Source: Myxococcota bacterium
GTDB lineage: Bacteria > Myxococcota_A > UBA796 > GCA-2862545
Assembly: GCA_039208735.1 (NCBI GenBank)
Contig: JBCCQY010000004.1
Location: 32,001 to 96,000 of the forward strand
Reading direction: 5' to 3'
Length of the DNA: 64,000 nt
Part shown: piece by piece, positions 2,772-7,088 of the stretch
Layout of the letters: the number at the start of each line of letters is the position of its first letter
How positions within the stretch are numbered: position 1 is the first letter of the stretch
Program-made: the position numbers and the translations under genes
The notes under the pieces: model-generated
What the model saw: only the letters and a program-made list of their open reading frames with translations
Databases searched by the model: none
Told to the model about the DNA's origin: nothing

Positions 2772-3605
2772 CTACTCGATCGCGGTGGGGTCCCATGCGG
2801 TCCGGCCGTTCTCGTCATCGGCGAGCCCGCCCAGCGCTTCGTGGTCGGACTCGTCGAGGGCGAAATCGAAAATCGCTGCGTTGTCGTCGATGCGTTGGGG
2901 ATTCGAAGACTTGGGCAGGATGACCAGGTTTTGTTCGATGCCCCATCGGAGCAGCACCTGCGCTGCAGTTCGCCCATGTTTGGTGGCTACCGACTGCAGT
3001 GTGGGGTCGTCGAGCCGCTTGCCCTTGGTCAGTGGTGAATACGCCTGAACCGTGATGCCTTGGGCCGCACAGAACGCTCGCAGGCCGGTCTGCGGCAAGA
3101 ATGGGTGGCACTCCACTTGGTTCACGGCGGGCGGAACCTTGGCCTGGTCGAGCAGTTCCGTGAGATGGCGCTGAGTGTAGTTGCTCACGCCGATGGCGCG
3201 GGCCTGACCGTCGGCGAAAATGGCCTCCAAGGCACGCCAACTGTCCTTTCGCTTCTCGGGAACGGGCCAATGGATCAGGTAAAGGTCGACTTGGGCGACG
3301 CCAAGCGTTTCAAGGCTTCGATCGAACGCATGGCGTGCCTCGTCGTAGCCATGGTCATCATTCCAGAGTTTTGTCGTGACGAAAATCTCGTCCCTGGCCA
3401 CCTCGGATGTGCGCAGTGCGGCACCGACTTCCTCTTCGTTCCGATAGATGCTGGCCGTGTCGATGTGTCGATAGCCCGTTCGCAATGCGTGCAGGACTGC
3501 GCCGACCGTTCCGTCTCCTGGGCCGGCACGGAACACCCCGAGGCCTACGATGGGCATCTCGACGTTCGGCGCGATGGTCAGGGTGGATTGCAGGGACATC
3601 GTCAT
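2772..3605 (-). CDS. Aldo/keto reductase (2,5-DKG reductase-like)
   Basis: GYRHIDTASIYRNE, FVTTKLWN, DLYLIHWP, AIGVSNY and LPKSSNPQRI. Confidence 0.95.
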   Translation of the reverse strand: MTMSLQSTLTIAPNVEMPIVGLGVFRAGPGDGTVGAVLHALRTGYRHIDTASIYRNEEEVGAALRTSEVARDEIFVTTKLWNDDHGYDEARHAFDRSLETLGVAQVDLYLIHWPVPEKRKDSWRALEAIFADGQARAIGVSNYTQRHLTELLDQAKVPPAVNQVECHPFLPQTGLRAFCAAQGITVQAYSPLTKGKRLDDPTLQSVATKHGRTAAQVLLRWGIEQNLVILPKSSNPQRIDDNAAIFDFALDESDHEALGGLADDENGRTAWDPTAIE

Positions 3606-4093
3606 GGCAACTCCACGTCCAGGTCGAGTTCATCGATGATCTGTTTGGCCACACGCTGCTCGTGGCGGCCGAGCTGCGGCACAATGACGTGCGACACCAA
3701 TCGATAGAGCTGATCGAGGTCGGAAGCGTCTCCGTCCACGGGTACATAGATCACCGTGCATCGTTCGAGCACCTTGGCCCGGAGCGTCTCGTCGAGGAGC
3801 GTGGTGCTGCCCAACGCGATGACGGGCGGGGTGGACTGTGCAAGCGGACGGTCCAGCAGGGCGGTCTCAGCCTCGCGACGTGCCTCTTCGCCATCTTCGA
3901 GCAGGACGCGGCGGAGGTCCTTGCCCAGACGGTGTTCGACTGCGCGATCGAGGAGGAACAACGGCAGTCCCGTCAAGATCGACACCAAACGAGCCGTCTG
4001 ATTGATGCGGGCCGCGGGAAGTCCCACCAACGCGAGCGGTTTGTCGGGGATGACGAGCGGCGTGTAACTGTAGTAGTCGATCGGTTCAGACAT
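3602..4093 (-). CDS. Shikimate kinase-like protein with degenerate P-loop
   Basis: LD..VE..LG...GE...R..E and VIALG pattern of shikimate kinases, but Walker A reads GLPAARIN. ATG at 4093 chosen; stop overlaps the next start (ATGA). Confidence 0.65.
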   Translation of the reverse strand: MSEPIDYYSYTPLVIPDKPLALVGLPAARINQTARLVSILTGLPLFLLDRAVEHRLGKDLRRVLLEDGEEARREAETALLDRPLAQSTPPVIALGSTTLLDETLRAKVLERCTVIYVPVDGDASDLDQLYRLVSHVIVPQLGRHEQRVAKQIIDELDLDVELP

Positions 4094-4120
4094 GAGAACG
4101 TCGTATCGACGATCCAACGC

Positions 4121-4148
4121 AAAACGGAAGCACTAAGGCTTCCGTTTT
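4121..4148. terminator. Intrinsic terminator, probably bidirectional, closing the rhodopsin transcript
   Basis: Perfect inverted repeat AAAACGGAAGC-actaag-GCTTCCGTTTT, 28 nt past the stop of the 71-aa ORF. Confidence 0.8.
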
Positions 4149-4176
4149 CATCCTTCGGTGCTGATGGTCCTGCGGC

Positions 4177-4392
4177 CTAGTCGTCGTTCGCGGCGTTCCA
4201 GTTCCGCGCGACCAGGTAGCCGCCGACCCCGAGGTAGAGAACAGAGATCGACAAGAACGCGTCGAATCCGATGAACCCTAGGCCTTCGGGGATGAAGACC
4301 CCTGCCAGGACGGCCATGATGAGGCCAAGACCGCCCATGAACAGGATGGCAGCACCGGTGGTCCAGTAGTGGCCTCCAGCGTGCTGCAACAT
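4177..4392 (-). CDS. Small two-TM membrane protein co-transcribed with rhodopsin
   Basis: 71 aa with two hydrophobic Gly-rich segments. ATG lies 3 nt after the rhodopsin stop and a terminator follows. Confidence 0.7.
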   Translation of the reverse strand: MLQHAGGHYWTTGAAILFMGGLGLIMAVLAGVFIPEGLGFIGFDAFLSISVLYLGVGGYLVARNWNAANDD

Positions 4393-4395
4393 GAA

Positions 4396-5181
4396 CTACT
4401 TCGCCGTGGCCAGCCGCGCGTCGGCGACTTCACCCTCGGCTTCCATCTTGGAGCGCGCGATGGCGTAGATCATGAAGCCGTAGCCGCACTTGGCCGCGAT
4501 GTCCGCGATGGAGTAGCCGACCTGCAGGCCCACCACGGTCTCAGGACTCACCCCGAGGAGCGGAAGCGCGTAGGCGATGGGGTAGAAGCCCCACGTGGCG
4601 AGCAGGAGCAGACGGGTGTTGCGGAGAAGAACCTTGGTGTCCTCATCAAAGTCCGCCGCGGCCGAGGTCATTTCGACCCAAAGGACGTAGAGGATGTAGA
4701 GGAACGGAATGGTCGAGAGGACGGCCCAGATCACACGGGTCTGGAAGTCTGCCGAGATCTCGCCAGGGTAGCCAAGGCCGATCATCAGCGCCGAGGCGAT
4801 GACGAGGCGCGGCATCAGCGTGTTGCGGCGTTCGGCCGGCAGCGCGAGAACGGCGACGAGTTCCGCCACGAGGAGAGGCACGGTGAGGAGCCAGTCGACG
4901 TAGCGGTAGGCATCGTTGAACGGCTTTCCGGTTGCGGTGTACACCCCAGCTTCGGTGATGGCATACGCCTCTTCCCAGCTGTTGAAAATTCGCCAGTAGT
5001 GGTACGCGGCAATGCCGACGACCAACGACGAGAGAATCATGGCCGGACGGTACTTCGCAGAGAGCTGCTGGCGAGCCTGAACGAAGAACACGAACGAGCC
5101 GAGCATGGCCGCGATGGCCAGCGACAACATGTTGTACACCAGGTTGAACTGGACTGGCGTAAGTTGGGACGGAAGTTCCAC
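4396..5181 (-). CDS. Microbial rhodopsin, xanthorhodopsin/Gloeobacter/actinorhodopsin-like DTE proton pump
   Basis: Helix C FNDAYRYVDWLLTVPLLVAE (D-T-E; Leu at the spectral-tuning site), helix B His (AYHYWRI), LGYPGE, TWGFYPIAY and Schiff-base Lys in ADIAAK. GTG start at 5181 with RBS AGGAGAGG. Confidence 0.97.
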   Translation of the reverse strand: MELPSQLTPVQFNLVYNMLSLAIAAMLGSFVFFVQARQQLSAKYRPAMILSSLVVGIAAYHYWRIFNSWEEAYAITEAGVYTATGKPFNDAYRYVDWLLTVPLLVAELVAVLALPAERRNTLMPRLVIASALMIGLGYPGEISADFQTRVIWAVLSTIPFLYILYVLWVEMTSAAADFDEDTKVLLRNTRLLLLATWGFYPIAYALPLLGVSPETVVGLQVGYSIADIAAKCGYGFMIYAIARSKMEAEGEVADARLATAK

Positions 5182-5252
5182 TGTTTTCCTCTCCTTGGAC
5201 GGTTGAAGAGAACCCAGGGGTATCAATTCAAAAGCGGTTCGGAGACCTGTTC

Positions 5253-5296
5253 AAAAAAAACAGAAGCTCTTCACGCTGTAGATGGCGGAAGAGCTT
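5253..5296 (-). terminator. Intrinsic terminator between the MerR/LitR gene and the rhodopsin gene
   Basis: Minus strand reads AAGCTCTTCCGC-loop-GCGTGAAGAGCTT, then CTG and T8. Confidence 0.75.
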
Positions 5297-5366
5297 GGGT
5301 TTTTCTTGGGTTGTGCCGCTTGTGCGATCTTGGTGAGCCTACACGATCGCGTTCAGCATGGGCTCG

Positions 5367-6296
5367 CTACGTTGGCACTTCGATGCCGTCATGCTTCAAG
5401 ACCAAGTCAAGCAAGTCCTCCATTTGAAGGCGGGCCCATCCCGTGCCCTCTTCCAGGGTCCGATGCACCGTTTCATCTTCGGGCGACTCGCTAACGCAAC
5501 GTCGACTGTACTCTTCGAATGCCACCAACGACGTCACGAGGCTCGCGATGTGGTTCGGGCATTCGCACTGGAGGCTCGCGGACTGTTCAGCTAGCGCGCG
5601 AAGCTGTTCCAACGAGAATCGGGGCTCGCTCGCGGCCCCGCGACCGAGGGAGCGGGCGCCGCTGTCCGCGAGGAAAAAGTCGGCCAGTACCTGGCGGAAC
5701 TCAGCACTTGGAAGTGGCGTGCGCAGGACCCGTACGCCGGGTAGCTCAAGTTCAGCTCGGCGTGCACTCGGCAGAAAGGCGTAGGTGACGACCACCCGGG
5801 CATCGTTGAGCTTTGATTGCAGGTCGAGCACCGCATCCTTGGGCGTTGGTCCAAGTGCGTCGAGACCGATCACGACCAGGTCGACCTCGTCGTTCGGATG
5901 GGGCAGCTCGCTGCGGTCGGAAATGGTCTGGGTGACCTGGACGCGCACGCCCGATCCCGTCGATCCATCGAGTCGCAGGGGCGTTGACCCAATCCACAGC
6001 ACCCGAATGTCACCATGAACCGGCCTCGGTTGATCCTGGGACAGCTCAAGCCGCTGGCGAAGTTCGGCAAGCTCGAGCTTCGCAAGCGTGCTGATGCGTG
6101 AACCACTCTCGACCAACTGTGCGATTAAACAGAGACGATCTACTTCTTCGTTGGAATACCGCCGTTGCCCACCTGGCGTACGCTCGGGGTTGACCACCCC
6201 GTAGCGACGTTCCCATGTACGAAGAGTTTCGGCGGGGATCCCGGTGAGTTCGGCCACGGCAGCGATGTTGAAGTGCCCACGCACGATTGCCCCCAA
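5367..6296 (-). CDS. MerR-family regulator, CarH/LitR-type HTH with Cys-rich C-terminus (class III LitR-like)
   Basis: HTH contains LRTWERRYG. No cobalamin-binding W-x9-EH or (D/E)xHxxG motif. C-terminus has CECPNH-x13-YSRRC and a later H. Start may be GTG at 6284. Confidence 0.88.
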   Translation of the reverse strand: MGAIVRGHFNIAAVAELTGIPAETLRTWERRYGVVNPERTPGGQRRYSNEEVDRLCLIAQLVESGSRISTLAKLELAELRQRLELSQDQPRPVHGDIRVLWIGSTPLRLDGSTGSGVRVQVTQTISDRSELPHPNDEVDLVVIGLDALGPTPKDAVLDLQSKLNDARVVVTYAFLPSARRAELELPGVRVLRTPLPSAEFRQVLADFFLADSGARSLGRGAASEPRFSLEQLRALAEQSASLQCECPNHIASLVTSLVAFEEYSRRCVSESPEDETVHRTLEEGTGWARLQMEDLLDLVLKHDGIEVPT

Positions 6297-6309
6297 ACCT
6301 GGTCAGTTC

Positions 6310-6337
6310 CGAACATGGGCCTCATAGCCCATGTTCG
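6310..6337. promoter_or_regulatory. Perfect 11-bp inverted repeat between sdhB and the MerR gene (hairpin or operator)
   Basis: CGAACATGGGC-ctcata-GCCCATGTTCG; no U-tract follows on the minus strand. Confidence 0.5.
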
Positions 6338-6338
6338 C

Positions 6339-7088
6339 TCAAGACGCTTCTGCTGTCATCGCCCGGAGGTACTCGCGGTTGAGCTGGGCGATCATGGATA
6401 GGTCGATACCCTTGGGACAGACCGCTGCACACTCACCATGGTTACTACAAGCGCCAAAACCCTGTTCATCATGCACAGCGATCATGTTCAGGACGCGCTG
6501 TGTACGCTCAGGATGGCCCTGCGGAACTTCTGAGAGGTGCGTGACTTTCGCGGCAGTAAAAAGCATCGCGGAGGCGTTGGGGCAGGCGGCGACACACGCG
6601 CCACAGCCAATACAGGCCGCAGCCGCGAACGCACGATCCGCGAATTGCTTGCCAACCTGGATCGCGTGGGCATCGGGGGCTGCACCGGTTCGCACGCTGA
6701 TGTAGCCGCCAGCCTGGATGATCTTGTCGAGCGAGCTGCGGTCGACGATGAGGTCCCGAACGATGGGGAAGGCGTCGGCGCGGAACGGCTCGAGCGTGAT
6801 GGTGTCGCCATCGCGGTACGTCCGCATGTGCAGCTGGCACAGCGTGGCGCGCGTGGTGGGACCATGAGCCACCCCGTCGACCATGCACCCACAGGACCCG
6901 CAGATGCCTTCACGACAATCGTGCTCGTAGGCCACGGGGCGTTCGCCTTTAGACAACAGCTCTTCGTTCAAGACGTCGAGCACGTCCAGCATGGACAGTT
7001 CTTCGGTGACGCCTTGCACCGTATAGGTCTTGAACGCGCCCGCTTTATCGGGCGCTTCCTGGCGCCAGACCTTGAGCGTGAGATTCAC
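6339..7088 (-). CDS. sdhB: Succinate dehydrogenase/fumarate reductase Fe-S subunit
   Basis: [23 protein letters not shown] and [15 protein letters not shown]. Confidence 0.97.

Follow-up and report, generated by a model that had tools for sequence, protein, structure and literature searches.

A class III LitR-like regulator gene beside a xanthorhodopsin gene with a likely small membrane partner in Myxococcota

The regulator-rhodopsin locus

Within a 64,000-nucleotide stretch of DNA from a Myxococcota bacterium (the window, by which the whole stretch analysed is meant; its genome is referred to as G000, and G001, G002, G021, G036 and similar handles denote other genomes of the class), a MerR-type regulator gene lies just upstream of a DTE rhodopsin gene of the xanthorhodopsin (XR) clade, which is followed by an open reading frame (ORF) for a small two-helix membrane protein. 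The three genes are preceded by sdhCAB on the minus strand, and the small ORF starts 3 bp past the XR stop codon (Table 1). A preliminary description of this DNA had noted the pairing of an RxWERRY helix-turn-helix (HTH) with a DTE rhodopsin, and both parts are present, as RTWERRY in the regulator and as D96, T100 and E107 in the rhodopsin. Comparison of G000 with G001 shows purifying selection on each of the three, with dN 0.20 and dS 0.99 for the small ORF.

Table 1. Features of the locus, in window coordinates.
Feature	Position	Strand	Remarks
Regulator gene	5367..6284	(-)	GTG at 6284 gives 305 aa; alternative start TTG at 6296 (5367-6296)
XR gene (xanthorhodopsin-clade DTE rhodopsin)	4396..5181	(-)	GTG start; 261 aa; K231; Ala153
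Small two-helix membrane protein ORF	4177..4392	(-)	71 aa; family without name
Terminator-like hairpin	5253..5296	(-)	hairpin 5264-5296, T8 tract 5253-5260; z -6.2
Terminator-like hairpin	4121..4148	(-)	11-bp stem, T4; z -3.5; closes the XR-small protein unit
Hairpin between sdhB and regulator	6310..6337	(-)	12-bp stem, without U-tract; z -5.7
Candidate operator boxes	5225..5253	(-)	TGAACA 5253-5248, CGAACC 5241-5236, TGAATT 5230-5225; degenerate motif copy

Each of the three hairpins folds better than 200 of 200 shuffles; a simple terminator scan missed all of them, and its 3 hits are about what chance would give (2.5 expected). A search of 3500-7000 for sigma-70 consensus promoters found none. 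The hairpin between sdhB and the regulator holds inverted GAACA/TGTTC half-sites and may be an RNA-end element or an autoregulatory operator. Recent transfer of the unit was also considered, of which there is no clear sign, because the GC content at third codon positions of the XR gene (0.84) and the small ORF (0.83) is close to that of the flanking genes (0.73-0.79); that of the regulator is 0.69. Downstream of the unit, at 3602-4117 on the minus strand, lies a divergent shikimate-kinase-like ORF without an evident P-loop, which is kept in the same place in G001.

Identity of the regulator

In Pfam the regulator matches the MerR HTH only, with no match to PF02310 or PF02607, and it reaches 64 bits against the cut-off of 400 for NF052513, over the HTH part only. 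The B12-type motifs Wx9EH and ExHxxG were not found in its sequence, and CECPNH-x13-YSRRC is an exact match to CxCPxH-x13-YSxxC. Pfam and the motif scan thus agree with the preliminary description, in which the regulator was said to lack B12-binding motifs and to carry this cysteine motif.

Full-length homologs of the regulator occur in seven plasmid-collection records, and the gene surroundings of four were compared. The homolog of Burkholderia anthina (WP_009687760.1, on a plasmid) has as neighbours the genes for GTP cyclohydrolase I (folE), cyclopropane fatty acid synthase (cfa), a sigma factor and photolyase, a set which presumably matches the class III litR region of Burkholderia multivorans; the Caballeronia and Ralstonia homologs adjoin folE, and the Methylomagnum homolog has no neighbours of the folE, cfa, sigma factor or photolyase type. 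WP_009687760.1 aligns with the C-terminal part of the regulator at 28% over 179 aa (E 7e-17), the C-terminal profiles of the regulator and the Burkholderia-type proteins match at 99.7% in hhalign, and C252, C254 and C275 of the B. anthina protein align with the three cysteines of the regulator. Their spacing, which the preliminary description gave as that of the B12-independent class III LitR of Burkholderia, proved identical in the MerR homologs of Burkholderia, Caballeronia and Ralstonia. Judged from sequence, the regulator is class III LitR-like, the B. anthina protein being taken as class III by its gene cluster and the known make-up of the B. multivorans region.

Like the class III LitR of B. 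multivorans, the regulator combines a CarH-type HTH and the CxCPxH-x13-YSxxC motif with the lack of a B12 domain (PMC9758184, PMC6739363), but it sits on a Myxococcota branch of the family and has a rhodopsin unit as its neighbour instead of folE, cfa and photolyase genes. With class I CarH, CarA and LitR proteins (Thermus CarH, PDB 5c8d-f; Myxococcus CarA) it shares the RxWERRY recognition helix, and the motif of its family consists, as in class I operators, of 11-bp direct repeats in tandem with a TnnACA core, whereas the two features that mark class I, the four-helix Wx9EH cap and the B12-binding Rossmann motif, are missing; its domains are instead ordered as HTH, receiver-like Rossmann and Cys-bearing helical hairpin.

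This order is taken from an AlphaFold2 model (mean predicted local distance difference test score, pLDDT, 88.8; predicted template modelling score 0.55), with a winged HTH at the N-terminus. The receiver-like Rossmann domain (about 90-212) matches 2qxy with Z 12.4 and a root-mean-square deviation of 2.3 over 108 aligned residues. The C-terminal hairpin carries the conserved residues C240, C242, H245, E257, C263, H274 and E289; among 40 sequences of the regulator family C242, E257, Y259, C263, H274 and E289 are invariant and C240 and H245 near-invariant, and these Cys/His/Glu residues may form a metal or chromophore site. On its own the C-terminal domain is predicted to fold with pLDDT 93.4. 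A Foldseek search with this model gave no match at E<=0.001, and its structural matches are generic helical hairpins (best Z 8.1; ferritin-like EncB Z 7.8, tied with coiled coils), which point to no particular chromophore type. The class III LitR of B. multivorans, described by Sumi and colleagues in 2018, reportedly has a light-dependent spectrum, releases DNA and responds to UV-A near 340 nm. In PMC9758184, class III LitR is given as having no known C-terminal domain, and the recombinant Burkholderia protein as showing a light-dependent absorption change. Receiver-like and Cys-hairpin domains were also seen in proteins of 179-260 aa without a MerR HTH (P0016-P0020 and Atlas clusters without names).

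The rhodopsin and its likely small partner protein

The solved structures closest to the XR are psXR (9wfa), Gloeobacter rhodopsin (GR; 6nwd), Kin4B8 (7ytb) and Salinibacter XR (3ddl), with E values of about 1e-80 to 1e-83. The features by which xanthorhodopsin proton pumps are recognised are all present in the sequence and shared with these proteins, namely homology to XR and GR, the DTE motif, the His-Asp pair and the retinal lysine (key residues H61, R93, D96, T100, E107, D227 and K231), and from DTE and homology the protein is predicted, with high confidence, to pump protons outward. It differs from these xanthorhodopsins in a clade-specific AKCGYG helix G, in an obligate downstream two-helix gene, and at the antenna site, where Ala153 (window 4723-4725) replaces the fenestration Gly156. 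Alanine occupies this site in 14 of the 42 clade tips, spread over two distinct subclades of 10 and 4 tips, which suggests that antenna binding may have changed repeatedly in the clade. The nearest relatives of the XR come mostly from records titled Myxococcota, Myxococcales or Deltaproteobacteria. Some loci (L038, L058, L061, L278 and L283) are titled Enterobacteriaceae, Bdellovibrionales or Klebsiella, their DNA being GC-rich with a Myxococcota-type XR and partner, and the titles of metagenome-assembled genome (MAG) records look unreliable here.

With regard to retinal, a family search that did detect blh in G017 and G024 failed to find it in G000 (92.7% complete), G001, G036 or G095. G000 does carry the carotene genes crtY, crtE, crtB and a crtI/D-like gene, along with five RPE65-family oxygenases, so that its retinal would come from crtEBIY carotene and an RPE65-family oxygenase, or from prey or scavenging. 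In relatives the unit is often ordered XR, small gene, (crtY), blh, and 13 of 43 loci have blh at a distance of no more than 2 kb.

The 71-aa ORF had been listed as the small membrane protein of the module; that it encodes a membrane protein holds, but it was underrated, being the most conserved part. The protein contains two hydrophobic stretches, its conserved residues are G7, H8, Y9, G13, G20, F40, I41 and G57 (signature G-H-Y-x-T-x-G...G...F-I...G), and its family comprises 192 representatives at 50% identity. Pfam gave no consistent family across 110 members, the best family being hit by 5 of them with E values no better than 0.004, and Atlas matches were below 0.9 and to clusters without names. 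Among 153 class genomes, each at least 80% complete, the small gene stands directly after XR in all 12 that carry an XR of the clade and in none of the remaining 141, which include 6 with only proteorhodopsin-type genes; because at least 7 of the 12 positives were in the query alignment for this search, it is the absences that carry the weight of the count. In a tree of 121 XR sequences, the 41 partner-bearing XRs fall within one clade of 42 tips (support 0.986), whose remaining tip lacks the partner at a contig edge, and the small gene follows XR in none of the 79 tips outside the clade (75/78 with sufficient sequence downstream); another XR, from a Myxococcales-titled record, ends only 91 bp before its contig does.

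The small domain also occurs fused in frame to the C-terminus of XR-derived seven-helix proteins, in P0125 (336 aa), P0175 (343 aa) and the partial P0093. P0125 and P0175 are 63-64% identical, their small domain is matched by hhalign at 98.2%, and in the fusion proteins the acceptor Asp is replaced by Val and the retinal Lys by Leu. Because of the clade-wide linkage and these fusions to a retinal-less XR copy, the small protein is likely to be an XR subunit; the fusions are Rosetta-stone evidence from a single lineage, and we lean slightly towards a physical association with XR, be it as subunit or as assembly factor. Against this, the fusions belong to that one lineage, have a degenerate opsin and could stem from the loss of a stop codon, and weak paralogs of the small protein are found away from XR (L185:2-253 on G024:C234, G000:C123:14151-14360, and L184:1483-1701 in G086). 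P0125 gave only one weak, unrelated match in the genome contigs, and thus no genome context. Longer forms of the small protein were not found, which is weak evidence. In two loci a second, divergent copy with an EYDH loop in place of GFID stands upstream of XR (L050:9470-9688, L052:6082-6303), behind a cupredoxin gene, and a crtI-like gene follows the unit.

Linkage, candidate operator and proposed control of the unit

Across the 153 class genomes an XR-clade gene is present in 12 and the C-terminal domain of the regulator in 24 (26 copies); the two genes are adjacent in G000, G001, G021 and G036, and 5.6 kb apart in G083. With all fetched loci merged by identical sequence, and clade loci counted if 1,200 bp or more lay upstream, the regulator was next to XR in 13 of 35 clade loci (6 co-directional, 7 divergent) vs none of 70 other XR loci. 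In a FastTree tree of 55 sequences the adjacent regulators are spread over at least 5 distinct branches, with non-adjacent ones in between, which means that the link has repeatedly been gained or lost; it is recurrent rather than obligate. A sample of 80 regulator loci was also drawn by pattern from an estimated total of about 1,000 (40 further matches without flanks being left out), and 32 of the 80 have a light-type neighbour by a gene list of our own, a count without background control. Other family members adjoin cryptochrome/photolyase, folE or PYP-like genes; the latter encode PAS proteins with a VAPC cysteine (L136:7015-7773 in G039, L156:1-393 in G045, L134:10356-11048 in G035) that score below the TIGR02373 cut-off, and in G039 and G045 they lie directly upstream of the regulator on the same strand. 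In a Burkholderiales MAG (L346, 1353-3713) a DTE proteorhodopsin gene is divergent from a class III LitR-type gene across 426 bp, which is an independent rhodopsin-regulator pairing outside Myxococcota.

A de novo motif, TGAACA-N5-TGAACA, was obtained from random seeds over 22 promoters of regulators not adjacent to rhodopsin, and it fits the 11-bp CarH repeat nnnnTnnACAn as given in PMC9304148. In this training set, which is not independent, it reaches at least 15 bits upstream of 12 of 16 RxWERRY-type vs 0 of 6 LLAWERRY-type class III regulators. The LLAWERRY subgroup (L146, L149-L151, L163, L168) is without an upstream TGAACA tandem, and four of its loci share another conserved leader before a regulator-methylmalonyl-CoA mutase arrangement. 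In the 160 bp before XR a significant site (shuffle p<=0.05) was found in 10 of the 13 adjacent loci (4/6 co-directional, 6/7 divergent), compared with 8 of the 28 clade loci without adjacency and 10 of the 77 other XR loci (Fisher p 0.006 and 6e-6, both overstated by kinship). A predicted CarH-type repeat operator is clear in clade relatives and weak in G000.

From these observations the following mechanism can be proposed. In the dark, the regulator would bind repeats of the TGAACA type a short way ahead of the ribosome site of XR and repress XR and its partner; light would act on the C-terminal Cys/His site and cause release from DNA, after which XR and partner would be co-transcribed and assemble into a proton pump. 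As a whole this appears likely for clade loci with strong sites, while in G000 the chances are about even. Taken in parts, control of XR by the regulator in G000 is reasonably probable, and light, if that control exists, is quite likely to be its signal. Light control is thus likely for the clade and less sure in G000, because the G000 operator is degenerate and the motif also occurs in genomes with only B12-type CarH.

A number of observations weigh against this mechanism. The adjacency that the preliminary description expected in relatives does recur, but 22 of the 35 clade loci and 22 of the 26 class regulator copies are not adjacent, and most class III copies in the class adjoin unrelated genes. 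A rhodopsin lies within 3.5 kb in only 3 of the 80 sampled regulator loci (two Myxococcota XRs already in the set and the Burkholderiales proteorhodopsin) and in none of 14 metagenome loci. The related genomes and loci are kin and not independent. With 7 of the 13 adjacent loci divergent, sites there may be only the regulator's own operator, and the two co-directional loci without a significant site are G000 and G001 themselves. The G000 site before XR, CGAACC-N5-TGAATT, scores 6.6 bits (regional best-site shuffle p=0.28), as high a score being reached by 22% of 4,454 promoter-like regions, and that of G001 scores 5.6 bits (p=0.23); the regulator's own promoter in G000 reaches at most 4.3 bits. 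The earlier proposal of a two-terminator bracket around XR and the small ORF stands in that both hairpins beat all shuffles, but the downstream one has a T4 tract only, and the bracket looks local because G021 and G036, in which the regulator is less than 100 bp from XR, show no U-tailed hairpin by inspection.

These points could also be read as a circuit that is ancestral in the clade and has been relaxed in the genus of G000, with a decayed operator, a regulator now linked to sdh or to other targets, and XR and partner transcribed from their own promoter irrespective of it. We regard this as somewhat unlikely, although it would account for the non-significant sites of G000 and G001, for the terminator between regulator and XR, for the regulator lying at sdh genes in G000, G001 and the rhodopsin-less G002, and for the absence of the TGAACA motif from the G000 photolyase promoters. 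It is countered by the last two boxes being kept in G001 as the shared block of an otherwise unalignable spacer, where the strong G021 and G036 boxes align; they are spaced 11 bp apart, and a perfect TGAACA lies 12 bp upstream of the CGAACC box, one base off register. Half-site density in the G000 XR promoter is moreover in the top 2.5% of G000 promoters (G001 31%; a post hoc measure), and a CarH operator can still be bound when it has one or two good repeats (PMC9304148). Control of the unit by the class I, B12-dependent CarH of the crt cluster (contig C43), the class III protein being redundant or incidental, is improbable. G000 does possess a full CarH with Wx9EH and B12 motif beside crtY/E/B, and strong XR sites occur in G024, G086 and G095, where a class III gene was not found and only class I CarH was, which also counts against the proposed mechanism. 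The CarH proteins of those three genomes are, however, of the RxWERRY type, whereas that of G000 reads LLAWERRY, a type without any motif site of at least 15 bits upstream among the class III regulators, and the class III regulator is the only RxWERRY-type found among the CarH relatives in G000. Since strong sites accompany class I CarH in these genomes, the XR unit seems to be connected to the CarH family as a whole.

Even where the regulator does control XR, its Cys/His/Glu site might respond to metal, to redox state or to photo-oxidative stress instead of light itself; the invariant and near-invariant residues resemble metal ligands, many family members adjoin genes without an evident light role, and the class III LitR literature, as far as accessible, names no chromophore. 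We consider this quite unlikely in view of the light-dependent absorption change of the recombinant Burkholderia protein and the light-type neighbours in the sampled loci, uncontrolled for background as they are. The small protein, similarly, might serve retinal or carotenoid supply, by pigment loading or by coupling to Blh or a carotenoid cleavage oxygenase, instead of being a stable XR subunit, given that several loci have its gene between XR and crtY/blh and that the weak paralog of G024 is directly upstream of an ORF matching the G000 carotenoid oxygenases. This, too, is rather unlikely, as the small gene is kept in 41 loci, only 13 of 43 having blh nearby, and the fusions join the small domain to an opsin fold without the retinal lysine.

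Few accounts are known of how rhodopsin phototrophs induce their pump genes in response to light. Myxococcota MAGs have already been reported to carry proton-pumping rhodopsins, in some cases along with blh and in others not (PMC10576062), a LitR-type regulator and a small partner gene not being named in the accessible part of that paper. No description of a LitR-rhodopsin circuit or of a small XR partner was found in the open-access literature, most subscription papers being outside this scope. The individual parts are of known kinds. With these loci come a specific candidate for the repressor, an operator of defined sequence and a promoter ready for reporter work, as well as a second system in which to seek the class III LitR chromophore. 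The small membrane protein, present clade-wide and known from natural opsin fusions, is a candidate for an accessory subunit of a pump usually studied alone. It may be relevant to the expression of these XRs and to antenna binding in those with Ala in place of Gly156. Put more broadly and only tentatively, Myxococcota may possess their own two-subunit xanthorhodopsin with an obligate small subunit, retained also where the opsin has lost its retinal and is fused to it, and the complex would be turned on by two chemically different kinds of CarH-family photoreceptor, of which one would be a B12-free class III LitR with a metal-type Cys/His/Glu chromophore site, recruited repeatedly to rhodopsins, the betaproteobacterial proteorhodopsin included.

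A genome-wide operator scan of G000 returned no coherent light regulon among the top 30 regions. A strong operator-like site, TGAACAGGTCTTGAACC, nearly identical to the XR promoter sequence, does lie at G000:C33:32372, upstream of a 169-aa ORF without annotation.

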